A DNA stretch of 32,000 bases from Nostoc punctiforme PCC 73102 (GTDB lineage Bacteria; Cyanobacteriota; Cyanobacteriia; Cyanobacteriales; Nostocaceae). Position numbers and translations under genes: made by a program. Location of the stretch: assembly GCF_000020025.1 (NCBI RefSeq), contig NC_010628.1, positions 1,470,001-1,502,000 of the forward strand, in the 5' to 3' direction. Below the pieces are notes generated by a model. The model saw only the letters and a list, made by a program, of their open reading frames with translations, was not told where the DNA came from and did not search any database. Below are positions 1 to 32,000 of the stretch, one piece after another (position 1 is the first letter of the stretch; each line of letters opens with the position of its first letter).

Positions 1-66
1 CTTCACATTCCTGTTTTACATAAGAGTGAGTCTTATATAGCAGTTCTAAATCATTCGTAAAAAATT

Positions 67-99
67 AAATCCCCGACTTCTTAAATAAGTCGGGGATTT
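67..99. terminator. Hairpin AAAT-CCCCGACTT-(cttaaat)-AAGTCGGGG-ATTT; terminator-like in both directions and typical of a dispersed Nostocales hairpin family
   Basis: Perfect 9-bp GC-rich stem at 71-79/87-95, with an A-run on the left and a T-run on the right. It lies about 250 bp upstream of the first CDS. Confidence 0.4.
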
Positions 100-135
100 A
101 GACAACGCAAATTTTCACAACTCATTTAGGATTGC

Positions 136-212
136 TATAGCGTTTCTCGGTTGAGTCCAATACAGACCTAACCCCTAGCCCAAATGCTACAAGGGTTGGG
201 GAGAGGTTCATC
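136..212. repeat. Dispersed repeat (TATAG-GYTTCTC-GTTGAGT-CAATACAGA-CTAACCCC...); a second copy lies at 24301-24348
   Basis: 136-182 aligns by eye to 24301-24348 with only a few mismatches. The right part (aacccct...agggttgggg) is an imperfect palindrome. Confidence 0.7.
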
Positions 213-345
213 AAACTCACGTTAATTCAGTTAAAACTTGGTCAAAACTTGGGGTGCGGTACTTTATTTGCGTAACACACCCTATTTTCGTTGTATGTTT
301 CTTAGGTACATCGAACTGCTCTTGTAAACTTATTGAGAATTAACT

Positions 346-750
346 ATGGAACCTATTTCTCTGATTATTGCTGCTTTAGGTGCTGGTGCGATCGCGGCTG
401 CTAAAGATACCGCCACAACAGCCGTGAAAGATACCTATCAAGGTTTGAAGGCTTTGATTAAAAAGAAGTTTGAAGGCGATGTTCTAGGAAAAGCGATGGT
501 AGATGCCAAACCCGAAGAAATTAAGCAAGCTGAAGGTTTATTAAAAGACAAAATTACCAAAGCTGGTGCCGATAAAGATGCAGCAATTATTCAAGCGGCT
601 CAAGAGTTACTTAATCAAGTCAAAGAACAGCCCGGTGGACAGCAGATTATTACCCAAAATATCAGTAATGTCAAATATGCCGCTACTTCTGGTTCTGGTA
701 ATGCAAGTATTAGTGACATCAATGAACAAGGCACATCGAAAGAGAACTGA
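346..750 (+). CDS. Small putative effector: N-terminal Gly/Ala-rich hydrophobic helix, Lys-rich helices, and a C-terminal amyloid-signalling-like motif shared with the downstream NLR (Bell/HeLo-like by architecture)
   Basis: 134-aa ORF. N-terminus is MEPISLIIAALGAGAIAAAK. The C-terminal QNISNVKYAATSGSGNASISDINEQ matches residues 9-34 of the next protein. The gene sits 31 bp upstream of that protein on the same strand. Confidence 0.75.
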   Translation: MEPISLIIAALGAGAIAAAKDTATTAVKDTYQGLKALIKKKFEGDVLGKAMVDAKPEEIKQAEGLLKDKITKAGADKDAAIIQAAQELLNQVKEQPGGQQIITQNISNVKYAATSGSGNASISDINEQGTSKEN

Positions 751-781
751 GACTGTAACTTAATTAATCAGGGTAGATGTT

Positions 782-3700
782 ATGTCTAAGCAAGGCGAGA
801 TTCAACAAAGTGTTACAGAGAGTGAATACGCTGCTACCTCAGCGACTGGTAATGCAACTATCACTGTTACCAATTACTACTATCGAGAAGAAGCAAGATT
901 AGTCGCTTCTGATTCTACCGACGCTGCTGATGAATCTCTCCCTTGTCCTTATCGCGGTTTGTTTCATTTTGGCCCCAATGATGCGGATATATTCTTTGGG
1001 CGGGAAATTTTTATCGAAGAACTTTATAGTGCAACTAAAACCCGGAATTTTATACCCGTATTGGGTGCATCGGGAAGCGGTAAATCTTCGGTGGTGTTGG
1101 CGGGGTTAGTCCCGAAGTTGCAAACAGCCGGAAATTGGCAGTTTACTCACTTTCGTCCTGGTGCTGATCCTTTTCATGCGTTGGCTGTAGCTTTAGTGCC
1201 ACTTTATACGCCTAATTTAGATGCAACTGACCAAATTGCCCAAGCCCGCAAGTTAGCTGGTTACTTGCAAGATGGCTCTATGCTGATCTCGGACGTTTTT
1301 GCTAAAATTCGGCAAAATCACCCTAATCAACGGGTGCTATTAATTGCTGACCAATTTGAAGAAATTTATACTCTCTGTCACCATCAGGAAACTCGCCATA
1401 AATTTCTTGATTGCTTATTAGCTAGTTTAGAAACTTCCTCTTCTCTATCTGCATCCGCTACGGTGTGGGTAACGACAATGCGGGCAGATTTTTTGGGAAA
1501 TGCTCTCTCCTATCGTCCCTTTGCGGATATCTTGCAAAATGCTGATGTGAAATTAGGGCCGATGAATCGGGAGGAATTAACACAAGTTATTGAAAAACCT
1601 GCCGAAAAATTAGGGGTGACATTTGCAAGCGGACTGGTAGAACGCATTTTAGAGGATGTGGAAAACCAGCCAGGAAATTTACCTCTGCTAGAGTTTGCTT
1701 TAACAGAGTTGTGGAATAAGCGCACGGGTAAACAATTAACTCACAAAATCTATGAAGAAATTGGTCAAGTAGAAGGTGCGTTAGCTCGTCATGCTGATGA
1801 AAAATATGGCAACTTGACAGAGGAGGAAAAAGAAAAAGTCCGGCGGATTTTTATTCAATTGGTGCGTCCGGGTGAGGGAACAGAAGATACTCGACGAGTG
1901 GCGATGAAGGCGGAATTGGGGGAGCAAAGCTGGGATTTGGTCAAACAATTAGCGGATGCTCGGTTGGTGGTGACAAGTCGCAATGCTACCAGTCAAGAAA
2001 CGGTAGAAGTAGTCCATGAAGCTTTGATTCGCAACTGGGGAGAACTGCGGGAATGGATGAATAAAGACCGCGTTTTTAGGGCTTGGCAAGAGCGACTGCG
2101 TTCAGCAAAAGGACAATGGGAAGCAACGCAGCGAGATGAAGGGGCATTGTTGCGGGGTGCAGCGTTGGTAGAGGGGGAAGAAAAGCTAAAACAACGGCGA
2201 GAGGATATTAGCGCAGGCGAGCAAGAGTTTATTCAAGCTAGTGTAGCATTGAGGGATAGGGAACAAAAGCAACGGGAACGCACAAAACGGCTAACTTTTT
2301 CTGGATTGGCTGGGGGTTTGGTGTTAGCTTTGGGTTTATCTGGACTAGCGGGTATAGGCTGGGGGAATGCCGAAATCAGCCAAATTAATGCCTTTGCCCA
2401 AAGTTCCGATGGGTTTTTGAGTTTAGATGGGCGAAAAGCTGTCGAATCAAGCGTCAAAGCTGCTGTCAAAATGCGAGGTAAATTCTGGGTAGATGCGAAT
2501 ACCCGCACCCAGGTAAAACTGACATTATTAAATACAGTTCATAATGTTGCCGCACCTAACACCTTGGGAGGACACGCAAAGGAGGTTCAGGGCATCAGCT
2601 TCAGTCCCGATGGCAAGATGCTAGCTTCTGCCAGTGATGACAACACGGTGAAACTGTGGGATACCACCACTGGCAAAGAAATCAAAACCCTAACTGGGCA
2701 TACAAACTCGGTTTTGGGCATCAGCTTCAGTCCCGATGGCAAGATGCTAGCTTCTGCCAGTAGTGACAACACGGTGAAACTGTGGGATACCACCACTGGC
2801 AAAGAAATCAAAACCCTAACTGGGCATACAAACTCGGTTTTGGGCATCAGCTTCAGTCCCGATGGCAAGATGCTAGCTTCTGCCAGTGCTGACAACACGG
2901 TGAAACTGTGGGATACCACCACTGGCAAAGAAATTAAAACCCTAACTGGGCATAGAAACTCGGTTTTTGGCATCAGCTTCAGTCCCGATGGCAAGATGCT
3001 AGCTTCTGCCAGTGCTGACAACACGGTGAAACTGTGGGATACCACCACTGGCAAAGAAATCAAAACCCTAACTGGGCATAGAAACTCGGTTTTTGGCATC
3101 AGCTTCAGTCCCGATGGCAAGATGCTAGCTTCTGCCAGTTTTGACAACACGGTGAAACTGTGGGATACCACCACTGGCAAAGAAATCAAAACCCTAACTG
3201 GGCATAGAAACTCGGTTAATGACATCAGCTTCAGTCCCGATGGCAAGATGCTAGCTTCTGCCAGTGATGACAACACGGTGAAACTGTGGGATACCACCAC
3301 TGGCAAAGAAATCAAAACCCTAACTGGGCATAGAAACTCGGTTAATGACATCAGCTTCAGTCCGAATGGCAAGATGCTAGCTTCTGCCAGTTTTGACAAC
3401 ACGGTGAAACTGTGGGATACCACCACTGGCAAAGAAATCAAAACCCTAACTGGGCATACAAACTCGGTTAATGACATCAGCTTCAGTCCCGATGGCAAGA
3501 TGCTAGCTTCTGCCAGTGGTGACAACACAGTGAAACTGTGGGATACCACCACTGGCAAAGAAATCAAAACCCTAACTGGGCATAGAAACTCGGTTAATGA
3601 CATCAGCTTCAGTCCCGATGGCAAGATGTTAGCTTCTGCCAGTGGTGACAACACGGTGAAACTGTGGGATACCACCACTGGCAAAGAAATCAAAACCCTA

Positions 3701-4420
3701 ACTGGGCATACAAACTCGGTTAATGGCATCAGTTTCAGTCCCGATGGCAAGATGTTAGCTTCTGCCAGTGGTGACAAGACGGTGAAACTGTGGGATACCA
3801 CCACTGGCAAAGAAATCAAAACCCTAACTGGGCATACAAACTCGGTTAATGGCATCAGTTTCAGTCCCGATGGCAAGATGTTAGCTTCTGCCAGTGGTGA
3901 CAAGACGGTGAAACTGTGGGATACCACCACTGGCAAAGAAATCAAAACCCTAACTGGGCATACAAACTCGGTTAATGGCATCAGTTTCAGTCCCGATGGC
4001 AAGATGCTAGCTTCTGCCAGTAGTGACAACACGGTGAAACTGTGGGATACTACCACCACTGGCAAAAAAATCAAAACCCTAACTGGGCATACAAACTCGG
4101 TTAATGGCATCAGCTTCAGTCCCGATGGCAAGATGCTAGCTTCTGCCAGTAGTGACAACACGGTGAAACTGTGGGATACCACCACTGGCAAAGAAATCAA
4201 AACCCTAACTGGGCATACAAACTGGGTTTATGGCATCAGCTTCAGTCCCGATGGCAAAATGCTAGCTTCTGCCAGTACTGACAACACGGTGAAACTGTGG
4301 AGGCTGGATTTTGATTATTTACTCCAGAAAGGGTGCAGTTTTATGCGCGAGTATTATAAAACTAATCCCCCTGATAATGAGAGTGACAAGCACTTGTGTG
4401 ATGGTGTTGGTAATTTGTAA
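782..4420 (+). CDS. NLR-like STAND NTPase: N-terminal short amyloid-like motif, P-loop NOD (nSTAND/NACHT-like), a hydrophobic segment, then 14 WD40 repeats
   Basis: 1212-aa ORF. It has the PYRGLFHFGPNDADIFFGRE lead-in, Walker A GASGSGKSS, Walker B-like VLLIADQFEE, the hydrophobic stretch LTFSGLAGGLVLALGLSGLAGIGWG, and 14 copies of ISFSPDGKMLASASxDNTVKLWDTTTGKEIKTLTGHxNSVxx. Confidence 0.93.
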   Translation: MSKQGEIQQSVTESEYAATSATGNATITVTNYYYREEARLVASDSTDAADESLPCPYRGLFHFGPNDADIFFGREIFIEELYSATKTRNFIPVLGASGSGKSSVVLAGLVPKLQTAGNWQFTHFRPGADPFHALAVALVPLYTPNLDATDQIAQARKLAGYLQDGSMLISDVFAKIRQNHPNQRVLLIADQFEEIYTLCHHQETRHKFLDCLLASLETSSSLSASATVWVTTMRADFLGNALSYRPFADILQNADVKLGPMNREELTQVIEKPAEKLGVTFASGLVERILEDVENQPGNLPLLEFALTELWNKRTGKQLTHKIYEEIGQVEGALARHADEKYGNLTEEEKEKVRRIFIQLVRPGEGTEDTRRVAMKAELGEQSWDLVKQLADARLVVTSRNATSQETVEVVHEALIRNWGELREWMNKDRVFRAWQERLRSAKGQWEATQRDEGALLRGAALVEGEEKLKQRREDISAGEQEFIQASVALRDREQKQRERTKRLTFSGLAGGLVLALGLSGLAGIGWGNAEISQINAFAQSSDGFLSLDGRKAVESSVKAAVKMRGKFWVDANTRTQVKLTLLNTVHNVAAPNTLGGHAKEVQGISFSPDGKMLASASDDNTVKLWDTTTGKEIKTLTGHTNSVLGISFSPDGKMLASASSDNTVKLWDTTTGKEIKTLTGHTNSVLGISFSPDGKMLASASADNTVKLWDTTTGKEIKTLTGHRNSVFGISFSPDGKMLASASADNTVKLWDTTTGKEIKTLTGHRNSVFGISFSPDGKMLASASFDNTVKLWDTTTGKEIKTLTGHRNSVNDISFSPDGKMLASASDDNTVKLWDTTTGKEIKTLTGHRNSVNDISFSPNGKMLASASFDNTVKLWDTTTGKEIKTLTGHTNSVNDISFSPDGKMLASASGDNTVKLWDTTTGKEIKTLTGHRNSVNDISFSPDGKMLASASGDNTVKLWDTTTGKEIKTLTGHTNSVNGISFSPDGKMLASASGDKTVKLWDTTTGKEIKTLTGHTNSVNGISFSPDGKMLASASGDKTVKLWDTTTGKEIKTLTGHTNSVNGISFSPDGKMLASASSDNTVKLWDTTTTGKKIKTLTGHTNSVNGISFSPDGKMLASASSDNTVKLWDTTTGKEIKTLTGHTNWVYGISFSPDGKMLASASTDNTVKLWRLDFDYLLQKGCSFMREYYKTNPPDNESDKHLCDGVGNL
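2591..4300 (+). repeat. Tandem array of 126-bp (42-codon) WD40-coding units, 14 copies, near-identical at DNA level
   Basis: Units start at 2591, 2717, 2843 and so on. Units at 3725-3850 and 3851-3976 are identical 126/126. One unit is 129 bp because of an extra Thr codon near 4045. Confidence 0.95.
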
Positions 4421-4736
4421 TACCGCTATTACCTATGCGAGAACCGTTATAAGTAATGCTTAAGCCGTAGTTAATACAACTTAAACAGTACTTATTAATG
4501 GTGAAGCTGTAGTTACAAACGCTCATTATATGATAAGTAAACTTGAAGCTATAGTTAATATAACTTCTTCTGTAGTTATCAATGCTCAAGCTGTAGTTAA
4601 CACAACTTCTTCTGTGGTTATAAATGCTCAAGCTATAGTTAACACAGCTTCTTCTGTAGTTATGAATGCTCAAGCTATAGTTAACACAGCTTCTTCTGTA
4701 GTTATGAATGCTCAAGCTGTAATTAAGATTAGATAG
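4413..4736. repeat. 42-bp tandem repeat, about 7.7 units (consensus aatgctcaagctatagttaacacagcttcttctgtagttatg)
   Basis: Units are in phase at 4413, 4455, 4497, 4539, 4581, 4623, 4665 and 4707. The 3' units are nearly perfect and the 5' units become progressively degenerate. The first unit overlaps the NLR stop codon. Confidence 0.9.
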
Positions 4737-4743
4737 ACGCTTT

Positions 4744-4939
4744 AGAGGTTGTTTGAAAAGTATTTCGCTGTGATTTTAAGCACTTAGCGATCCCCCCTAA
4801 CCCCCCTTAATAAGGGGGGAAACGGAATCAAAGTCCCCCTTAGTAAGGGGGAAACGAATCAAAGTCCCCCTTAATAAGGGGGATTTAGGGGGATCTAGAA
4901 CGTTTTGATACCGATAAGAGGACTTTTCAAACATCCTCT
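4744..4939. mobile_element. MITE-like nested palindromic element (small dispersed repeat class) with a poly-C/poly-G hairpin core
   Basis: The outer inverted arms agaggttgtttgaaaagt (4744-4761) and acttttcaaacatcctct (4922-4939) match 17/18. The core at 4789-4895 runs gatcccccc...gggggatc and holds three CCCCCTTAnTAAGGGGG hairpins. Confidence 0.65.
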
Positions 4940-5069
4940 TAGATAAATTAAGAGAATTTACCAGTATTTATCTCATAAAAAGTATAATTATTTTTGTGGA
5001 TTTTGCTGAACCAGAATGTATTTTCAGTAGGACATAGTAGCTGTATAAATGTTACGAGTAACCAAATTT

Positions 5070-5465
5070 ATGTCTTTGAGAAAACGTACATCCCGCGTTC
5101 TAGAAAATGCTGAGTTAAGATTTGCTGGACTCAAAGCAATTGATGCTAATTTGGATCTTGGAAATACTTGTAATTTAAAAGCCCTGACAGAAATAATTGA
5201 AGAATTACGCAGCAAGTTAGAAGCTCATAATACTGCTCTTAGTACAATTGACTCTTCCAAAGTAGAAATTGAAGAATTAGAACAAACCTTGGGTACTTTC
5301 TCCGAAAAAATGCTCATGGGAATCGGCTTTAAATACAGCAAAGATAGCCGCGAATATGAGATGGCTGGTGGAGTTCGCAAAAGTGAACGTATCCGTAAAA
5401 GCAGAGCGACTCGCTTAAAAACTATTTCACAAAAAGCATCTATGCAGGGCACTAAACCCTTGTAG
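5070..5465 (+). CDS. Hypothetical coiled-coil protein with a basic C-terminus; paralog of the disrupted gene at 29009-29421
   Basis: The ORF runs 5049-5465. The start at 5070 (MSLRKRTSRVLEN) aligns with the MPRQKRSSTVLEK start of the paralog. The shared block is KYxKDSREYEMxGGVRK...RIRK...TRLK. Confidence 0.6.
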   Translation: MSLRKRTSRVLENAELRFAGLKAIDANLDLGNTCNLKALTEIIEELRSKLEAHNTALSTIDSSKVEIEELEQTLGTFSEKMLMGIGFKYSKDSREYEMAGGVRKSERIRKSRATRLKTISQKASMQGTKPL

Positions 5466-5557
5466 ATGTGTAAGCAATACAGTTCGGATCAGCAGGGAAG
5501 TAAAAAAAGTTATTAACCAGTAATTCTTGCTCCCCTGCTTGCCTCAATGCCCAAATA

Positions 5558-6337
5558 CTAAAATTCGCGTTGTGAGAAGATAAAAATAGCGATCGCTAAT
5601 AACAGGGCACTATAAAGTAAACCATAGCCAGCATTTGTAATTAGTGCAGTTGTATCAGGTAGTGCTTGCAGACCATAAACGGCATCATTTTTCAAATCTA
5701 ATCGAGATAAATCTGGCAAAATGAGAAACAAACCTTGAGTTAGACCTTCTATACCAGGGTTGCGGCTCAGACGACCTAGTTGGACTAAATCTTGAGTAAT
5801 ATTTCCGATTAAATATACCGCAAAGGTTAAAACAGTAGCGAGGAGAGAAGCAGTAAAAACACCGAAGGTAATAGCCATAGCGGTGATTAATGACAACTGC
5901 AATACTAAGAAAATTGCAGCAATTAAAATACTCGCTGTTGGGTGGTGAATATTACCAAATTGCAGAAATACTAGATAAATTGCTGTCATCGTAGCGACAA
6001 GTACAGCTAATACTGCGGATAAACCTAAGTATTTGCCGACGATAATTTCGCTGCGACTGACAGGTTTCGCAATCAACACCAAAATAGTACGTTTTTCAAT
6101 TTCTTTATTAACCAGTCCCGTACCAACAAATATTGTCACAATTAACCCGATGGCATTCATCGCCGCCATCCCGAAGTCTAAAAATATTTTGTCTTCAGTC
6201 GTAGCTGCAAATTGAGGAAGGACGCGAAAGGCAGCAGCGAGTATAAGCGCATAAAAACCAATAATATATAGGATGCGATCGCGTACCACTTCCTGAAATA
6301 CATTCTTTGCCAATACAAAAATTCTGTTAATAGTCAT
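5558..6337 (-). CDS. fraE: ABC-2-type permease-like membrane protein, FraE-like (third gene of the filament-integrity operon)
   Basis: 259-aa polytopic membrane ORF. Its position and length fit Anabaena fraC-fraD-fraE as I recall them (FraE about 263 aa, ABC-2 permease-like). No adjacent ATPase gene. Confidence 0.6.
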   Translation of the reverse strand: MTINRIFVLAKNVFQEVVRDRILYIIGFYALILAAAFRVLPQFAATTEDKIFLDFGMAAMNAIGLIVTIFVGTGLVNKEIEKRTILVLIAKPVSRSEIIVGKYLGLSAVLAVLVATMTAIYLVFLQFGNIHHPTASILIAAIFLVLQLSLITAMAITFGVFTASLLATVLTFAVYLIGNITQDLVQLGRLSRNPGIEGLTQGLFLILPDLSRLDLKNDAVYGLQALPDTTALITNAGYGLLYSALLLAIAIFIFSQREF

Positions 6338-6445
6338 TTGTCATTATTTGTCATTAGTCATTTGTCATTTTCCCCCTGCCCCACTTCGGCTACGCTCAGT
6401 GACCACCTGCCCCCTGCTCCCCTTCCTCCCCTGCTTCATCTCTTC
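6338..6445. repeat. Composite repeat block in the fraD-fraE spacer: TTTGTCA-type heptamer STRR, the CACTTCGGCTACGCTCAGTGACC element, and a C-rich CCCCTGCTCCCC motif
   Basis: It contains catttgtcattatttgtcattagtcatttgtcatt, then cacttcggctacgctcagtgacc (also present at 30167-30193), then cctgccccctgctccccttcctcccctgcttc. Confidence 0.8.
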
Positions 6446-7453
6446 TCACTGCTGCGGAGGCGGCGATCCGGCAATTAATTTACTGGCGCGATCGCATTCA
6501 ATTTCTGCAACTGTAATGTTATTACCTGAATTGCTGGTTGCTGCAACTGGTTCAATTCGGCAAGATTTTTTCAAGTAATAGCCCCGTGGGTTAGAACTTG
6601 GCCCTATCCAAATACTTAATAAATCTAATATATATCCAGACTTAGTATTAGCTACACGCGGTTCAATGCGCCATAAATCCTTCTCTTCATATTTCCCCAG
6701 GCTTTTTTGAATTACTGCCCTACCCAGAGTTCCTACTCGCTGTTTTGCATCAAGCAACCATTTCTCTACTTCCGACCAAGGTGTTTGGTTTATTTGTTCT
6801 ATTACTATTGGTTGAAGTCTTTCTAGAATTACAACACCGTTTTGTGGGATTTTTACTCGTTCTTCTGTTCTGACAACAAAGGTACTACGTTTAAAAGTAT
6901 CTGCTTGCAAACTAGGATATTGTTGAAACCAATGATCCATTACAAAATAAAACTGAATCCAGCAACTTAGTAGCATACTACTAGCAACTAAAATTATGAT
7001 TCTTTGGCGGTCTTGTGGCTTAGGAATTCTAGCTTTAGCGTCAGTATCACTTCCTTCAATAAACTCTGGTATTGCTGTAATTAGTGCTGAAATTGTCGGA
7101 CAAAAAACGATTGTTCTTGGTGTAATTACATCCTGTTGATTTCCAAAAGCAAAAACACTCACTAAGAATCCAGTGATTACTGCCCCAACTGGCATAAAAG
7201 TACCAGGAACTCTCAAAGGATCTTGAGTTGTATACCAAGCTGTGCCGGCAATCAAAAATAACCAACCAAAAAAGGCAATAATATCTTTGATATAGCCTGT
7301 AGCTAAATATGACAGTGCCCAAGAAAAAACACTCAAATAAATAAATGTCTGCCAAGAATAAGCTTTGGGTGGAACTAATACTTTTCTAATTCCTGCATAA
7401 ATCCCTTCCGCAAATTTAAAAATTCCAAATACATCTTTAAGTAGCGTATTCAT
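6446..7453 (-). CDS. fraD: Membrane protein with N-terminal TM helices and a C-terminal soluble domain, FraD-like
   Basis: 335-aa ORF between the fraC-like and fraE-like genes. It has 4-5 hydrophobic helices in the first ~200 aa and then a soluble tail. Length and order fit FraD (about 343 aa as I recall). Confidence 0.55.
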   Translation of the reverse strand: MNTLLKDVFGIFKFAEGIYAGIRKVLVPPKAYSWQTFIYLSVFSWALSYLATGYIKDIIAFFGWLFLIAGTAWYTTQDPLRVPGTFMPVGAVITGFLVSVFAFGNQQDVITPRTIVFCPTISALITAIPEFIEGSDTDAKARIPKPQDRQRIIILVASSMLLSCWIQFYFVMDHWFQQYPSLQADTFKRSTFVVRTEERVKIPQNGVVILERLQPIVIEQINQTPWSEVEKWLLDAKQRVGTLGRAVIQKSLGKYEEKDLWRIEPRVANTKSGYILDLLSIWIGPSSNPRGYYLKKSCRIEPVAATSNSGNNITVAEIECDRASKLIAGSPPPQQ

Positions 7454-7509
7454 GTTCCTCCTTCCACCTAATTAACTAATCACTCGTTTTCCTTCTAAGT
7501 AAAATCTTC

Positions 7510-8055
7510 CTATTTTGCACTAAATAATAAAATAAGAGTTATAGCACTATAACTCAGGGAATTTGCTATTAGTACAGTAATTATTAAATTATTACTTTGG
7601 AATTTCAAGTTGCCAAAAGTCCGCCATCGCCGCCGTTGAGATATTGGAGCTTCCGCTTCCTCTTCTTTTTTAGCAAATTGCTCATTTAATGATAGTAACA
7701 ATACCTTTAGAATGAAAAACTTCATCAAAAAAGTAGAAAAGAAAATTATAAAAGCAGTTAATATTAGTAAGCCTTGTGTATTAGGTGATTTAAAGTTATT
7801 AAAAAACATATAGTTAATTAATTCTGTTCTCACCTGGAGCGGTAAAATTGGTTCTGATACAAAAAATATGGACCAACCAATTACACTAGAAAATAAATTG
7901 ATAGAAATAGCATAAAAAGTACTAGTTTTTTTGTCAAATTTGAGTCGATAGTGCAAAAGATAAGCTTCGATGGGAATGGCAATCAGTACAAATAAAAAGT
8001 CAAACAGAATTCCACCAATGGGAAAAATCCTCGGAAGTATCCAATTCTCAGGCAT
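7510..8055 (-). CDS. fraC: Phenylalanine-rich small membrane protein, FraC-like filament integrity protein
   Basis: 181-aa ORF, very Phe-rich, with about three TM segments and a charged [15 protein letters not shown] loop. It is the first gene of a three-gene same-strand cluster. As I recall, FraC of Anabaena is a Phe-rich protein of about 179 aa. Confidence 0.6.
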
Positions 8056-8291
8056 AAGTGGTCAAGGGTAAGGTTTAACTGTAGAGAGTATAACTGGGAT
8101 AGTGAGGGTGATGGGGGAAATTATTACATTGTTCTTGTCCTTTACTATGCTGGTGTGCCAGTATTCTCTGATTGATATTGTTAATACATCAACCTGATAC
8201 TTGTACGGGGACACTAGAGGGCTAGTTTCTCTACCTAAGATTACAAGAGGTTAGGTAAGATTAAAGACTGCCACTTATAGCTTTTCGAGAG

Positions 8292-9428
8292 ATGACAAGG
8301 AACGGTATCGGTATTCGCACGGCGCAAGTGCGTCAAGAACGGATCATTGGTCAAATTCACGTCTACGATGGCGTGGGTAAAGGTAAGTCTCAAGCGGCTT
8401 TGGGTGTGGTTTTGCGCTCTATTGGTTTAGGGATAAATACGCCTAGTGATTCTAACCGTGTTTTACTGCTGCGCTTTTTAAAAGGGCCGGAACGTGATTA
8501 TGACGAAGATGGAGCGATCGCAGCTTTGCAGCGCGGGTTTCCCCATTTAATAGACCAGGTTCGCACTGGGAGAGCCGAATTTTTTGGCCCAGAAGAAATT
8601 ACCACCTTTGACCAAAATGAGGCGATGCGGGGTTGGGATGTCGCCAAAGGTGCGATCGCTAGCGGTTTATATTCAGTTGTCGTCTTGGATGAAATTAACC
8701 CCGTTCTGGATTTGGGTTTGCTACCAGTAGATGAAGTGGTAAAGACATTAAAATCCAAACCCCAAGAATTAGAAATCATTGCTACCGGACGCGCTGCACC
8801 GCAAAAGCTGCTCGATATTGCAGATTTGCACTCAGAAATGAAACCTCATCACCATCCCACAGCCAAAGCCCTATTCTTGGAAGGGATTGAAATTTATACT
8901 GGTGCTGGTAAAGGCAAGTCTACTAGTGCTTTGGGCAAAGCCTTACAGGCCATTGGTAGGGGAATCAATCATCCAGGGTCTACCCGTGTGTTAATTATGC
9001 AGTGGCTTAAAGGTGGTAGTGGCTACACAGAAGATGCTGCGATCGCCGCTTTGCAGCAGTCATATCCAGAAGTGGTGGATCATCAGCGCTGTGGTGGAGA
9101 TGCGATTGTTTGGCGCAATTCCCGGCAAGAATTAGATTATGTAGAAGCCGAACGAGGTTGGGAAATCGCAAAAGTTGCGATCGCCTCTGGAATGTATAAA
9201 ACTATTATTCTCGATGAACTCAATCCCACCGTTGACTTAGAACTACTCCCCGTTGAACCCATTGTTCAAGCTTTGCTCCGCAAACCCCGCGACACCGAAA
9301 TCATCATCACTGGCCGCTGTCAAAATCAACCAGCGTATTTCGACCTGGCTAGCGTTCATTCAGAGGTTTATTGCCACAAACACTATGCAAATCAAGGTGT
9401 AGAACTTAAACGAGGGGTAGATTTTTAG
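8292..9428 (+). CDS. Protein with two tandem CobA/CobO/BtuR-like (ATP:corrinoid adenosyltransferase family) P-loop domains
   Basis: Two homologous halves are visible: VYDGVGKGKSQAALGVVLRSIGLG...LLRFLKG...VVLDEINPVLDLGLLP and IYTGAGKGKSTSALGKALQAIGRG...IMQWLKG...IILDELNPTVDLELLP. Confidence 0.75.
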   Translation: MTRNGIGIRTAQVRQERIIGQIHVYDGVGKGKSQAALGVVLRSIGLGINTPSDSNRVLLLRFLKGPERDYDEDGAIAALQRGFPHLIDQVRTGRAEFFGPEEITTFDQNEAMRGWDVAKGAIASGLYSVVVLDEINPVLDLGLLPVDEVVKTLKSKPQELEIIATGRAAPQKLLDIADLHSEMKPHHHPTAKALFLEGIEIYTGAGKGKSTSALGKALQAIGRGINHPGSTRVLIMQWLKGGSGYTEDAAIAALQQSYPEVVDHQRCGGDAIVWRNSRQELDYVEAERGWEIAKVAIASGMYKTIILDELNPTVDLELLPVEPIVQALLRKPRDTEIIITGRCQNQPAYFDLASVHSEVYCHKHYANQGVELKRGVDF

Positions 9429-16418: not shown

Positions 16419-17498
16419 CAAATTAAAATTGCTGTTATCGGAGTTGGGCGTTGGGGAGTGCATCTGCTACGGAATTTCTTAGCACATCCCCAAGTAGATG
16501 TAGTTGCTGTAGTAGATCCCCATCCAGAACGATTAGCGGCGATCAAACAGCAGTTTAATTTAGATGAAAATGTAGTATTGACAACCCAATGGGAAGATTT
16601 AAAGAAAGTGCCAGGGTTGACAGGGGTTGCGATCGCAACTCCGGCTACCACCCACTACGCTTTAATTAAAGACTCTCTCCAACAGGGATACCATGTTTTG
16701 GCTGAAAAACCCCTAACTCTCGACCCCGCAGAATGTCGGGAGCTTTGTCAGTTAGCAGAGCAGCATCATTTAATACTGATGGTTGACCACACTTATTTAT
16801 TTCACCCAGCAGTTGAGCAAGGGCAAACTGTAGTACAGGCGGGTAAATTAGGTGATTTACGCTACGGCTACGCCACCCGCACCCATTTAGGGCCTGTCCG
16901 CCAAGATGTTGATGCGCTCTGGGATTTAGCGATTCACGATATTGCTATCTTTAACGCTTGGCTGGGTCAGATTCCTGTGAAAGTACAAGCAACGGGTACG
17001 GTGTGGTTACAGGGAGCAGGGGAGCAGGGGAGCAGGGAAGCAGAGGGGAAGAAAGATACAAATTTTCCTCTGCCTCAAGGTTTGGCTGATTTAGTATGGC
17101 TAACACTGACATACCCAGATGGCTTTCAAGCTTATATTCACTTGTGCTGGCTGAATCCTGATAAGCAGCGACGGCTGGGGATTGTAGGTAGCCTTGGTAG
17201 TTTGATTTTTGATGAAATGTCGCGATCGTCACCTCTAACGCTGCTACATGGGGAATTTGAACAGCAGGGCAATCATTTTATTCCGGTAAATCAAAAGCAG
17301 GTGGTGCTGGAATTAGAACCAGGGGAACCATTGGGGCGAGTTTGCTCTTGTTTTGTTGACTCTATCCTCAACAATACTCCCTCAGAGGTTTCGTCTGGCT
17401 GGGTAGGCACACAGTTAGTAGAAATTCTTGCTGCACTAACAGTTTCTCTTGAGCAAGGCGGCCAACCTGTTTTTCTGAACAACTGCTCTCAAGTCTAA
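16410..17498 (+). CDS. Gfo/Idh/MocA family NAD(P)-dependent oxidoreductase
   Basis: 362 aa. It has the N-terminal Rossmann motif IKIAVIGVGRWG and the EKPL motif (VLAEKPLTL). It also carries an in-frame repeat-derived insert, QGAGEQGSREAEGKK. Confidence 0.85.
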   Translation: MTNQIKIAVIGVGRWGVHLLRNFLAHPQVDVVAVVDPHPERLAAIKQQFNLDENVVLTTQWEDLKKVPGLTGVAIATPATTHYALIKDSLQQGYHVLAEKPLTLDPAECRELCQLAEQHHLILMVDHTYLFHPAVEQGQTVVQAGKLGDLRYGYATRTHLGPVRQDVDALWDLAIHDIAIFNAWLGQIPVKVQATGTVWLQGAGEQGSREAEGKKDTNFPLPQGLADLVWLTLTYPDGFQAYIHLCWLNPDKQRRLGIVGSLGSLIFDEMSRSSPLTLLHGEFEQQGNHFIPVNQKQVVLELEPGEPLGRVCSCFVDSILNNTPSEVSSGWVGTQLVEILAALTVSLEQGGQPVFLNNCSQV

Positions 17499-17519
17499 TT
17501 TTCCCCTGAGAATAACCGC

Positions 17520-17615
17520 CCAATACTGTTCGGTTAAGGCAAGAGACGCGATAAATTGCCGTCTTTACAAGAATCAGTCCTTTGTAGAGACGGCGATTTA
17601 TCGCGTCTTTGGGAT
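17520..17615. repeat. Dispersed palindromic repeats of the AGAGACGCGAT..ATCGCGTCT type
   Basis: The sequence caatactgttcggttaagg is followed by agagacgcgataaattgccgtct and agagacggcgatttatcgcgtct. A related hairpin, agacgccatgaatcgcgtct, lies at 15342-15367. Confidence 0.7.
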
Positions 17616-17643
17616 CGTATTGAATAACAACCGCCCATTTTGC

Positions 17644-17916
17644 TTCATTAATAGAGTTCAAAGACTCATTCACGAGTATCAAAGACTCATCAACGAAGCT
17701 CCGAGGTTTATCAACGGAGTTCAAAGACTCATCAACGAAGCTCTGAGGTTCATTAACGGAGTTCAAAGGCTCATTCACGAAGCTTTGAGGTTCATCAACG
17801 GAGTTCAAAGGCTCATCAACGAAGCTCTGAGGTTCATTAACGGAGTTTAAAAACTCATTCACGAGGCTCCGAGGTTCATCAACGGAGTTCAAAGGCTCAT
17901 TCACGAAGCTCCGAGG
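17644..17916. repeat. Tandem repeat, 13 units of 21 bp alternating two subtypes (42-bp super-unit)
   Basis: The alternating units are ttcatcaacggagttcaaagg and ctcatcaacgaagctctgagg. The phase is kept from 17644 to 17916. Confidence 0.9.
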
Positions 17917-17932
17917 TTCAGGGAATGTGCTA

Positions 17933-29549: not shown

Positions 29550-29759
29550 GACAATAGGCTTGTGTTTTGAACGAATAAGCTCGTGTTCTGAACAAATAAG
29601 CTCGTGTTCTGAACGAATAGGCTCGTGTTCTGAACGAATAGGCTCGTGTTCTGAACGAATAGGCTCGTGTTCTGAACGAATAGGCTCGTGTTCTGAACAA
29701 ATAGGCTCGTGTTCTGAACGAATAAGCTCGTGTTGTGGACGAATGGACTTGTCTGCTTG
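29550..29759. repeat. 21-bp tandem repeat, 10 units (acgaataggctcgtgttctga)
   Basis: Units are in phase at 29550, 29571, 29592 ... 29739. Central units are identical apart from a/g and c/a switches, and the end units are degenerate. Confidence 0.92.
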
Positions 29760-30393: not shown

Positions 30394-31002
30394 ATGTCAA
30401 GAAATATTCGTGGAGATGAATCAGCTTTAGAGAATGTACTCAGTCTCGTAGAAGCATTGCTGCAACTGTCGGTAGAGCAAGACTGTGAATCAAAACTTCC
30501 ACTTTGCGTTGTCTGGAATGCTGATAAGCTGCGAATTACCGGATATAAAAGCGAACAGACAAGAGGAAACAGAAGCAAAACAACTGAAGTTGGTACAAAA
30601 AAGGAATATTTACTCAAACTGATTAAAGATGCTGGCAAAACTTTAAAACTTCCCCAGCAAAAAGCGGAACCTAACGTTTCTCAGAAAGAAAGAGAATTAG
30701 ACGAGCTTCAAACTGCACTCGACTGGTTGAAAGAGTTGGGAGTGCGAGAAGATCAAAAATCTACAAAAAGTCAAGGTTATTGGAAATTTACCCTGACGCT
30801 AAAACATCAGACAGCGACAATAAAAGAGAATCTGGAGGTGGTTAAGCAGAATTGGAAGGAACACCCAAAGACGAATTTAAAAGAAACATCCCAGGTACAA
30901 ACAACAGATAATACTTCGATTGGCAAGAAATCTGCGGCGCTATGCTGGAAAAGCACAAGCGTCTCACCACAAATGAGTTGCTGTTTGCTGATGATGAGAT
31001 GA
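30394..31002 (+). CDS. Putative N-terminal module of the NACHT protein, currently a separate ORF; unknown domain. After about 30910 the reading frame is probably not the native one.
   Basis: 202-aa ORF containing ...LDWLKELGVREDQKSTKSQGYWKFTLTLKHQTATIKENLEVVKQNWKEH.... Its last ~30 codons overlap the start of the NACHT frame. Confidence 0.5.
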   Translation: MSRNIRGDESALENVLSLVEALLQLSVEQDCESKLPLCVVWNADKLRITGYKSEQTRGNRSKTTEVGTKKEYLLKLIKDAGKTLKLPQQKAEPNVSQKERELDELQTALDWLKELGVREDQKSTKSQGYWKFTLTLKHQTATIKENLEVVKQNWKEHPKTNLKETSQVQTTDNTSIGKKSAALCWKSTSVSPQMSCCLLMMR

Positions 31003-32000
31003 AATTTGAGCTAGAGGCAATTCATGTCCCTTTAGCATTAGTGGAGCGTAACAAACCGAAGAAGTGGAGCGAGGATATTTCCCCAGAACAAGGTTCGCAA
31101 CTTTACGAACCGAGTTATGAAGAGAAGCAGCGATTTGAACATAAGGCTTTTTTAGAGCAAATTATCGGTGATGGTGTTGGTAAAACTCAAGGACACCGCA
31201 TCGGTTTAATTGGGGAACCCGGTGCGGGAAAAACTACTCAGTTGCAAACTATAGCTTTTTGGATATTAGACAAGAATCTGGGTTTACCAATTTGGATTTC
31301 TTTGGCAGACTTGCAAGGAAAGAGTGTAGAAAATTATCTGCTACAAGATTGGCTGAAGAATGCTTTAGAAGTGGTGCGTGTAAAAGAAGAACAGGAAAAC
31401 GCTTTCGCAGATTTATTCAAGAATAATCGTGTGTGGTTGTTGTTGGATGCAGCAGATGAAATGTCTTCACCCCAACCATTAACTGAGATTTCCCAGCAGT
31501 TGACGGGATGGGTGAAAAATGCGCGGGTTGTGCTGACTTGTCGAGTGAATGTTTGGGAAGCAAACGCCAACGCTTTAGAAAATTTTGAGACGTATCGGTT
31601 ACTCAATTTTGAATATCCGCAAGACGTGAAAAAATTTATTCGGCGTTGGTTTCACAACAAGGATGCAGACAAAGGGGAAAGATTATGGCAGGAATTAGAT
31701 AAAGCTGAACGTCAGCGCATCCAAGATTTAGTGAAAAATCCTTTGCGGTTAGCGCTGTTGTGTAGCACTTGGCAAGGTTCAGATAAAGGTTTACCGGAAA
31801 CTAAAGCCGGACTTTATCAGCAGTTTGTGGAAGAGGTTTACAAGTGGAAAGAAAACCGCTTCCCTACCACCGAACAGCAGCAACAAGAATTAAACGCAGC
31901 GTTGGGACGTTTGGCAAAACGGGCAATTGATCAAGAAACGTCACGGTTTCGGCTACGACATAAGTTTGTGCGTGAGGAATTAGGTGATGCAAAACAGCAA
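30942..32000 (+). CDS. NACHT-family STAND NTPase, 3'-partial (runs off the window)
   Basis: My own translation of the frame starting at ATG 30942 is open to 32000. It has Walker A GLIGEPGAGKTT, Walker B VWLLLDAADE, and NPLRLALLCSTW. This ORF is not in the supplied track because no stop codon lies within the window. Confidence 0.85.
   Translation, partial: MLEKHKRLTTNELLFADDEMKFELEAIHVPLALVERNKPKKWSEDISPEQGSQLYEPSYEEKQRFEHKAFLEQIIGDGVGKTQGHRIGLIGEPGAGKTTQLQTIAFWILDKNLGLPIWISLADLQGKSVENYLLQDWLKNALEVVRVKEEQENAFADLFKNNRVWLLLDAADEMSSPQPLTEISQQLTGWVKNARVVLTCRVNVWEANANALENFETYRLLNFEYPQDVKKFIRRWFHNKDADKGERLWQELDKAERQRIQDLVKNPLRLALLCSTWQGSDKGLPETKAGLYQQFVEEVYKWKENRFPTTEQQQQELNAALGRLAKRAIDQETSRFRLRHKFVREELGDAKQQ

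Follow-up and report, generated by a model that had tools for sequence, protein, structure and literature searches.

Near-identical WD40 blades with a few hypervariable codons: a probable sensor array in a two-gene NLR-like module of Nostoc punctiforme

Why should one bacterial gene carry fourteen WD40 blades that are almost copies of each other, and why should the few differences between them fall in the same codons? The question is raised by a gene of Nostoc punctiforme PCC 73102 that lies near the start of the stretch of DNA analysed here (the window: 32,000 nt, positions 1,470,001 to 1,502,000 of contig NC_010628.1, forward strand). A preliminary description of the window had proposed that the array is the rapidly evolving ligand-binding surface of an immune-type sensor. 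The gene codes for an NLR-like protein, hereafter the receptor, and is preceded by a small gene for a candidate effector; both this upstream partner and a predicted transmembrane helix in the receptor were missed in the preliminary description. We consider it probable, with about three chances in four, that the array serves as the sensor in a two-gene NLR-like module for cell death or non-self recognition. The features of the module are collected in Table 1.

Tandem Repeats Finder detected a single array at 2584-4300, with a period of 126, 13.6 copies, 96% matches and no indels, in frame within the open reading frame (ORF) 782..4420 (+) of 1212 aa. The array, first described as 14 tandem units of 126 bp, is therefore real and in frame, and only two of its units depart from that scheme. 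Unit 12 (3977-4105) is 129 bp long and carries an additional Thr codon in the C-D loop, so that the units after it are displaced by 3 bp, and unit 14 is partial, matching over 72 nt and then diverging into the C-terminal tail from position 4301. The mean pairwise nucleotide identity among units is 95.7%, which makes this the most homogeneous among the 11 arrays measured. When the units were re-derived in the register used before, neighbouring units lay 0-6 nt apart, and no difference was found between units 3725-3850 and 3851-3976. The residue following SAS was reproduced exactly, unit by unit, as D,S,A,A,F,D,F,G,G,G,G,S,S,T, and so were the further variable residues (N/K, T/R, S/W, L/F/N/Y and G/D). 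The synonymous variants that adjacent units had been said to share were traced to units 10-12 (AGC/AGT) and to units 9-11 (CTA/TTA).

An array of this kind invites the objection that its repeat identity or its copy number arose in assembly, where near-identical 126-bp units may collapse or expand. The caution on short-read assembly voiced in the preliminary description is fair, since the longest exactly repeated stretch in the array measures 228 nt. Many database homologs are marked 'partial' and stop at contig edges inside the WD40 array, many of those from metagenome-assembled genomes (MAGs) among them, and the counts of 10 and 15 units in other assemblies could be errors. Against this, the same protein is on record from a chromosome-size contig of PCC 73102 (8.23 Mb), independent assemblies of relatives share with the window the count of 14 units, the start of the array and the tail, and a paralogous 14-repeat array of the species was expressed and crystallised (2YMU). 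Furthermore, the units of the window are not all identical, but form an ordered series. That the array as such is an artefact is unlikely, the exact unit count being less secure in view of the 228-nt repeat; as the explanation of the locus we regard an artefact as highly improbable. Because such arrays break short-read assemblies and leave their homologs truncated, copy number and diversity are under-recorded in the databases.

The array contains 16 variable nucleotide columns, 5 of which are synonymous, and the differences totalled across unit pairs come to 332 non-synonymous and 96 synonymous. The earlier statement that almost all differences are non-synonymous was thus overstated; what stands is that 308 of the 332 non-synonymous pairwise differences are concentrated in 6 of the 42 codons. 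We separated these six variable codons (1, 16, 18, 38, 40 and 42) from the remaining 36, the framework, and applied the Nei-Gojobori method over all unit pairs. In the window array the variable codons had a dN of 0.35 and a dS of 0, and the framework codons a dN of 0.0037 and a dS of 0.051 (omega 0.07), so that a per-codon analysis bears out the restriction of amino acid change to a few sites. In the array of a syntenic ortholog (locus L001, see below), omega was 3.2 at the variable codons and 0.22 at the framework codons. Entropy over the 53 full repeats of four close orthologs reached 2.67 bits at position 42, 2.31 at position 16, 2.01 at position 40 and 1.05 at position 18, all other positions staying below 1 bit. 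The four top positions form two pairs set 18 residues apart, 40/42 around the invariant V41 and 16/18 around the invariant D17.

The place of these positions on the fold was read from an AlphaFold model of aa 575-1212 (mean pLDDT 81), in which each unit has four strands: A (positions 41-42 plus 1-4), B (10-15), C (20-24) and D (30-34). It follows from this strand assignment that positions 16-19 are the B-C turn and positions 35-40 the D-A loop. Of the six variable codons, the model places 16 and 18 in the B-C turn and the other four (38, 40, 42 and 1) in the D-A loop or at the start of strand A. The D-A and B-C loops make the top face of WD40 propellers. The proposal that the variable positions map to the propeller top face is supported in this way, the loops being taken from the model and the face from established WD40 topology, not from coordinates. 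Positions 40, 42 and 16 presumably correspond to residues of WDR5 that line its central arginine-binding (WIN) site, e.g. A47, S49 and A65. Among solved structures the closest is 2YMU, which comes from the same species and has 14 repeats in a double propeller (E 1e-203 by sequence, over the whole array; top match in Foldseek, 56% identity). Two 7-bladed propellers, as suggested in the preliminary description, are the supported fold of the modelled array, since the halves of the model superpose on the 7-bladed WRAP-T designs (TM 0.88-0.89 in Foldseek) and 2YMU is described as two WD40 domains (PMC5587647).

A genome scan returned 48 cyanobacterial loci. One of them, L001, belongs to a MAG of a Nostoc sp. 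and shows synteny with window 1-8760, 14 units and the same tail; the first 1809 nt of its receptor gene are 97.2% identical to the window without gaps. The two arrays follow another pattern. Framework differences per 105 nt amounted to 1.5 within the window array, 5.2 within L001 and 10.8 between the arrays, and units of the same ordinal were no closer to each other (10.85 per 105 nt). Codon 5 is AGT in 13/13 units of the window and AGC in 13/13 units of L001, codon 26 is ACC in the window and AGC in L001, and several synonymous differences are fixed array-wide between the two. The nearest neighbour lay within the own genome for all units of the window and for 12/13 units of L001, the thirteenth unit of L001 tying between an L001 unit and a window unit. 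Framework dS between the arrays was 0.36, vs 0.0675 in the adjoining N-terminal region. Because the arrays differ as whole blocks, with nearest neighbours in their own genomes, we read in these sequences the signature of concerted evolution, the homogenisation within genomes being the work of unequal recombination or gene conversion. Two further members of the 90% cluster, P0242 with 15 units and P0243 (Nostoc sp. TCL240-02) with 14, have other variable residues. Across the compared arrays the unit numbers were 14, 14, 15 and 10, with 14-15 in long contigs and 10 in the short-read MAG L047. Arrays of related strains thus differ in variable residues and in unit number (14, 14 and 15), as had been predicted. 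When the array itself was used for a protein search, generic WD40 proteins at 30-60% identity swamped the results. Some homologs carry the names 'S-layer homology domain-containing', 'peptidase C14' or 'eIF2A-related', which Pfam scans of the same proteins do not support.

These comparisons bear on the possibility that the array is simply young, the product of a recent amplification of one blade, such as has been suggested for many propellers of prokaryotes, followed by neutral drift, with no special recognition function. Highly repetitive WD40 proteins are common in cyanobacteria and were read as recent duplications (PMC5587647), and variants common to adjacent units, such as those found here, are expected of recent local duplication. 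However, orthologs with only 70-97% identity in the N-terminal region also have arrays of ~14 units, and the array is therefore old. Neutral drift also leaves unaccounted for that the arrays are homogeneous per genome yet show fixed differences between genomes, that the variable codons combine most of the non-synonymous change with an absence of synonymous change next to a conserved framework, and that identical positions vary in every ortholog. We judge a young, functionally neutral array to be improbable.

Could the variable codons instead be the target of a diversity-generating retroelement (DGR) or of another targeted mutator? In multicellular bacteria, nSTAND1 and NACHT proteins have been found with sensors diversified by DGRs (PMC10907252), but the targets described there carry C-type lectin/FGE-type domains, not WD40 repeats. 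No reverse transcriptase was detected among the window ORFs scanned against Pfam, and no template repeat was seen. Codon 16 varies at its first two positions and takes all four bases (GAT, AGT, GCT, TTT, GGT, ACT), so the changes are not adenine-specific, and the variants occur in blocks across neighbouring units, as from recombination. The hypervariability is almost certainly not of this origin.

Recombination may also have acted at the scale of whole modules. The locus L047 (Nostoc sp. isolate P8256 bin 3), compared with window 232-4420, has a mosaic identity profile: nucleotide identity is 96-97% in the motif region, 67-81% in the NTPase core, and 92-95% in the linker and the array. The framework consensus of the L047 array matches that of the window at 108/108 positions, and L047 units differ from window units by 2.6 per 108 nt, as close as units inside one array. 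In P0243 (QKQ75365.1), the N-terminal motif is of a RHIM/BASS3-like type (MNHTEFQAEVKGAQIGDHNIIYNYFYY) in place of the YAATS type of the window, the rest of the protein being similar. Since the motif type differs here within a cluster of 90% identity, the motif module must have been swapped between close relatives. The histories of array, NTPase and N-terminal motif are thus discordant in L001, L047 and P0243, which indicates that these modules were recombined and shuffled among lineages.

What such an array is attached to is a second line of evidence. From its N-terminus, the receptor consists of a 55-aa leader, an nSTAND1 NTPase, a charged linker, a hydrophobic segment, the 14 WD40 blades and a 39-aa tail. 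The PF20703 match spans 378/379 profile positions. The NACHT profile scored 15.6 bits, under its cutoff of 26.7, and a HET domain was not found with Pfam. NTPases of the nSTAND1 clade have been described from multicellular bacteria as part of predicted conflict systems (PMC8195603; PMC10907252).

The effector gene (346-750) and the receptor gene (782-4420) lie on the same strand with a gap of 31 bp, an arrangement that is kept in 30+ loci. The N-terminal helix of the effector is the top hydropathy window of the protein (Kyte-Doolittle (KD) value 2.06), and position 2 is acidic, as described by Dyrka 2020 (10.1101/2020.01.06.895854). Its AlphaFold model has seven helices, with pLDDT of 83-94 for aa 1-100, and is disordered at aa 107-134 (pLDDT <50). 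A conserved N-terminal region of this kind, termed 'MEPIS', is a functionally required part of the Bab, Bell and Hell domains with a role in cell death (10.1101/2024.11.07.622273), and Bell-domain/BASS pairs in filamentous bacteria have the same two-gene arrangement (10.1101/2020.01.06.895854). The effector found no match in a local Pfam scan, even at E <= 10, or in NCBIfam and PADLOC. A precomputed label, PF20701.5, stands on all 100+ effector homologs; the local Pfam-A scan never returns it, and a name for the family was not found.

The two proteins share a motif. Local alignment of effector aa 102-126 with receptor aa 7-31 scored 61, compared with a mean of 22.6 and a maximum of 44 in 2000 shuffles. 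The motif is rich in G/N/S/T with alternating hydrophobic residues and has the pattern ..YAATSxxGNAxI.. in the window. Three motif types were distinguished among the loci, and the effector and receptor sides agreed in all 32 that could be typed (11 A/A, 18 B/B and 3 C/C). The type-B motif of relatives (..KGAQVGDRNTQTNTF) resembles BASS3/RHIM entries. In Nostoc sp. CMAA1605 (L009:5623-9495), effector and receptor form one ORF of 1291 aa with a single motif copy; either the module exists here in an 'all-in-one' form or, possibly, a frameshift in sequencing has joined its two genes. The screen of Dyrka et al. 2020 took NACHT or NB-ARC partners only (10.1101/2020.01.06.895854), and the window receptor would fail it because its NACHT score is below the cutoff. 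Of the immune-type sensor first proposed, the fusion to an nSTAND1 NTPase and a Bell-type candidate partner with a shared motif now stand as support, the immune function itself being what we infer from them.

Table 1. Coordinates of the receptor gene, the candidate effector gene and their parts, numbered from the first letter of the window
Feature	Position	Strand	Basis or remark
Upstream gene, 134 aa (ACC79945.1 / WP_012407966.1), Bell-type candidate effector	346..750	+	
N-terminal hydrophobic helix of the effector, 'MEPIS'-like region: MEPISLIIAALGAGAIAAA	346..402	+	Hydropathy; helix 3-19 in the model
Effector-side putative signalling motif (aa 102-126): ITQNISNVKYAATSGSGNASISDIN	649..723	+	Local alignment; disordered in the model
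NLR-like receptor gene, 1212 aa (ACC79946.1 / WP_012407967.1 / B2IXC4)	782..4420	+	31 bp past the effector gene
Receptor-side motif (aa 7-31): IQQSVTESEYAATSATGNATITVTN, then conserved NYYYREE	800..874	+	
nSTAND1 STAND NTPase (aa 56-453)	947..2140	+	PF20703, 412-415 bits vs cutoff 27.1
Walker A, GASGSGKSS	1064-1090	+	
Walker B, VLLIADQFEE	1334-1363	+	
Predicted single transmembrane helix (aa 504-527): LTFSGLAGGLVLALGLSGLAGIGW	2291..2362	+	Hydropathy, charge bias
Array of 14 WD40 blades	2564..4300	+	Pfam WD40 in 14 stretches; 2YMU match E 1e-203; model
Diverged lead-in of the array, LGGHAKEVQ	2564-2590	+	
13 full WD40 units	2591-4231	+	Unit 12 of 129 bp, others of 126 bp
Partial WD40 unit (unit 14)	4232-4300	+	
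Conserved C-terminal tail: RLDFDYLLQKGCSFMREYYKTNPPDNESDKHLCDGVGNL	4301..4417	+	Kept in orthologs; helical in the model

Where in the cell would such a receptor sense? Residues 504-527 are its hydropathy maximum (KD 1.75 over a 19-aa window), with seven K/R in the preceding 15 aa and none in the following 15 aa. A hydrophobic window of at least 1.6 was found at the equivalent place in 115/118 homologs, with sequences of several unrelated types. The charge bias predicts that the N-terminus of the receptor is inside and the C-terminus outside. If aa 504-527 span a membrane, it follows from the positive-inside rule that the motif and the NTPase are cytoplasmic and the array lies in the periplasm or the thylakoid lumen. 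The tail cysteines C1185 and C1206 are the only Cys of the C-terminal 1000 aa, the next one upstream being C211, and a conserved pair of this kind would be in keeping with an oxidising compartment. STAND proteins with predicted sensor domains in the periplasm have been described before (PMC10907252). It is conceivable, if doubtful, that the receptor is a membrane-spanning NLR whose propellers face the periplasm or the thylakoid lumen, survey extracytoplasmic non-self, and relay the signal to a Bell-type pore-former via a motif outside the described BASS classes. Such non-self would be, e.g., molecules of foreign filaments, or parts of a phage at the envelope. The periplasm is continuous along the Nostoc filament. 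If this topology is true, bacteria would have their own equivalent of fungal allorecognition, with a receptor that differs in topology from every NLR characterised so far.

The same helix could belong to a protein of a different kind, one that is anchored in the membrane and acts as a scaffold or in signalling at the envelope or in the periplasm (e.g. in filament or septum biology, or in sensing of the environment), with repeats that are homogenised for stability. The predicted position of the array outside the cytoplasm would suit such a role, the pair adjoins a fraC/DUF5357/ABC-2 filament-integrity operon among housekeeping genes, no PADLOC match was obtained, and highly repetitive WD40s were linked to higher stability (PMC5587647). 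Stability, however, leaves the diversification at ligand-contacting positions unexplained, as an envelope role does the STAND NTPase and the motif that co-varies with a MEPIS/Bell-type protein, an arrangement so far met only in cell-death signalling pairs. We hold an envelope role of this kind to be unlikely.

For the preferred reading, a sensor array in a two-gene recognition module, the following mechanism can be proposed. A ligand would bind the variable top face of the propellers, and this binding would release an NTPase-driven oligomerisation that gathers the N-terminal motifs of the receptors into an amyloid-like template. The template would convert the matching motif of the effector, and the N-terminal hydrophobic (MEPIS) helix of the effector, thus freed, could then damage the membrane, as in HET-S/NWD2 and in E. 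coli Bab/Agp. If the hydrophobic helix of the receptor does span the membrane, sensing would take place in the periplasm or the thylakoid lumen and signalling in the cytoplasm. In antiphage defence by Bab/Agp, a Bell-type protein is activated by amyloid templating (Ibarlosa et al. 2024, 10.1101/2024.11.07.622273).

Several points weigh against this reading. Amyloid formation, toxicity, ligand binding and a defence role of the pair are what we infer, and the transmembrane prediction derives from hydropathy and charge bias only. The effector model gave no significant match among solved structures in Foldseek, so that the Bell assignment, not fully proven, rests on the MEPIS N-terminus, the helical fold of the model and the gene context. 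In the motif-pair table of the 2020 preprint, the one table consulted for this, YAATS, AATSG and GNASIS are absent. Neither the receptor nor the upstream protein matches any PADLOC-DB 2.0 family at E <= 0.01, and the genes around the pair are housekeeping genes, with no defence island within the scanned window ORFs. On the side of the array, the dN/dS estimates take the repeats as independent sequences, an assumption that repeats related by conversion break, and several of the compared arrays come from short-read MAGs, in which repeats may be collapsed.

A location of the module inside a defence island was rejected, as its neighbours are housekeeping genes. Directly downstream of the receptor, the minus strand at 5558-8055 codes for FraC (PF24301), a DUF5357 protein and an ABC-2 permease-like protein; these genes resemble the fraC-fraD-fraE filament-integrity operon of heterocystous cyanobacteria. 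Intergenic tandem repeats lie just past the receptor at 4454-4726 and 4802-4883, the first a 42-bp unit repeated ~6.5 times and the second a 31-bp unit with a CCCCCTTAATAAGGGGG hairpin in each copy. The stretch 4747-4938, which holds the hairpin repeats, falls between two blastn blocks with L001 and appears absent there. Two further tandem arrays were noted, at 29553-29744 (a 21-bp unit x9, 93% identity) and at 17654-17920 (a 42-bp unit x6, 42 being a multiple of 21); the latter is inside the minus-strand ORF 17368-17904, which has no Pfam match. A second, unrelated NLR-like gene is found at the end of the window, where 30394-31002 (+) codes for an Effector-Associated Domain 4 (EAD4; PF19959, E 9e-18) and 30912-32000 (+), an overlapping ORF in another frame that runs off the end, for a NACHT domain (PF05729, E 7e-13; GEPGAGKT / LLLDAADE). 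These frames are either two genes or one frameshifted gene.

Part of what is described here is already in print: the highly repetitive WD40 proteins of N. punctiforme (2YMU), their variable hotspots, the Bell/BASS pairs and nSTAND1. As far as the searched literature shows, the following are new: i) a Bell-type candidate effector paired with an nSTAND1 receptor, with a motif type outside the published table, ii) the conserved predicted transmembrane helix and the module mosaicism, and iii) the match of positions to the sites selected in fungi, together with concerted evolution among orthologs. If our reading is correct, amyloid-type signalling pairs also occur in the nSTAND1 clade, a group that the design of published screens left out, and it is suggested that part of this clade may sense outside the cytoplasm. 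The same four hypervariable positions and the same dynamics of homogenisation and diversification as in fungi would point to rules for recognition surfaces that are convergent or very old. The locus is a compact, testable case in a strain with a finished chromosome.

How does the module compare with known systems? A close likeness, already named in the preliminary description, is to the fungal HET-E/HET-D/NWD (HNWD) genes of Podospora anserina, in which near-identical 42-aa WD40 units likewise stand inside one gene. In HET-E/HET-D, positive selection acts on codons 7 and 9, which belong to the D-A loop, and on codons 25 and 27, which belong to the B-C turn, each pair lying around a conserved residue on the interaction surface (Paoletti et al., PMC1805685); the geometry is the same in the window array, with positions 40, 42, 16 and 18 as the equivalents of codons 7, 9, 25 and 27. 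Concerted evolution, variable repeat number, repeat shuffling and fusion to a STAND NTPase are also shared. Furthermore, NWD2, a relative of HET-E, signals to the HeLo pore-former HET-S via a shared amyloid motif, and the pair in the window likewise shares a motif. The window receptor differs in several respects: it is bacterial, its NTPase is nSTAND1 and not NACHT, it has no HET domain, and a predicted transmembrane helix stands between its NTPase and its array. With an NTPase other than NACHT, the gene counts as an analogue of the HET-E/NWD family and not as one of its members. In addition, repeat-induced point mutation (RIP), unlike in fungi, does not operate in Nostoc.

With the Bell/BASS pairs and E. 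coli Bab/Agp, the module shares an upstream collinear candidate effector of ~130 aa that is helical in the model, with a MEPIS-like N-terminus and an acidic position 2; with the Bell/BASS pairs also a G/N/S/T-rich motif of ~25 aa at the effector C-terminus and the receptor N-terminus. It differs from the published Bell/BASS pairs in that its motif is outside the 2020 table and its receptor has a predicted transmembrane helix, and in that it is known here from sequence.

2YMU (Npun_R6612 of the same species, the source of the WRAP-T designs) likewise has 14 near-identical 42-aa repeats in two propellers, and in sequence alignment its variation is likewise mainly at the first residue of strand A. 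Unlike the window array, it is a paralog with another repeat consensus that was studied as a repeat domain only, as a model for protein evolution and design. More generally, Hu et al. 2017 described highly repetitive WD40 proteins with many 14-repeat bacterial members, an enrichment in cyanobacteria and interaction hotspots that stay diverse (PMC5587647). The window array fits their definition of high internal identity. They read the pattern as young duplication with higher stability, without concerted evolution among orthologs, dN/dS, NTPase fusion or partner genes.

Finally, the nSTAND1 conflict systems (Kaur et al. 2021) and Avs/bNACHT offer a bacterial parallel in logic: the same NTPase family, PF20703 (nSTAND1), an N-terminal effector or adaptor joined to an NTPase and a C-terminal repeat sensor, and an enrichment in multicellular bacteria. 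Known antiphage STANDs, however, mostly combine TPR-like sensors with fused enzymatic effectors, whereas the output of the module in the window would be a short motif and a separate pore-type protein.

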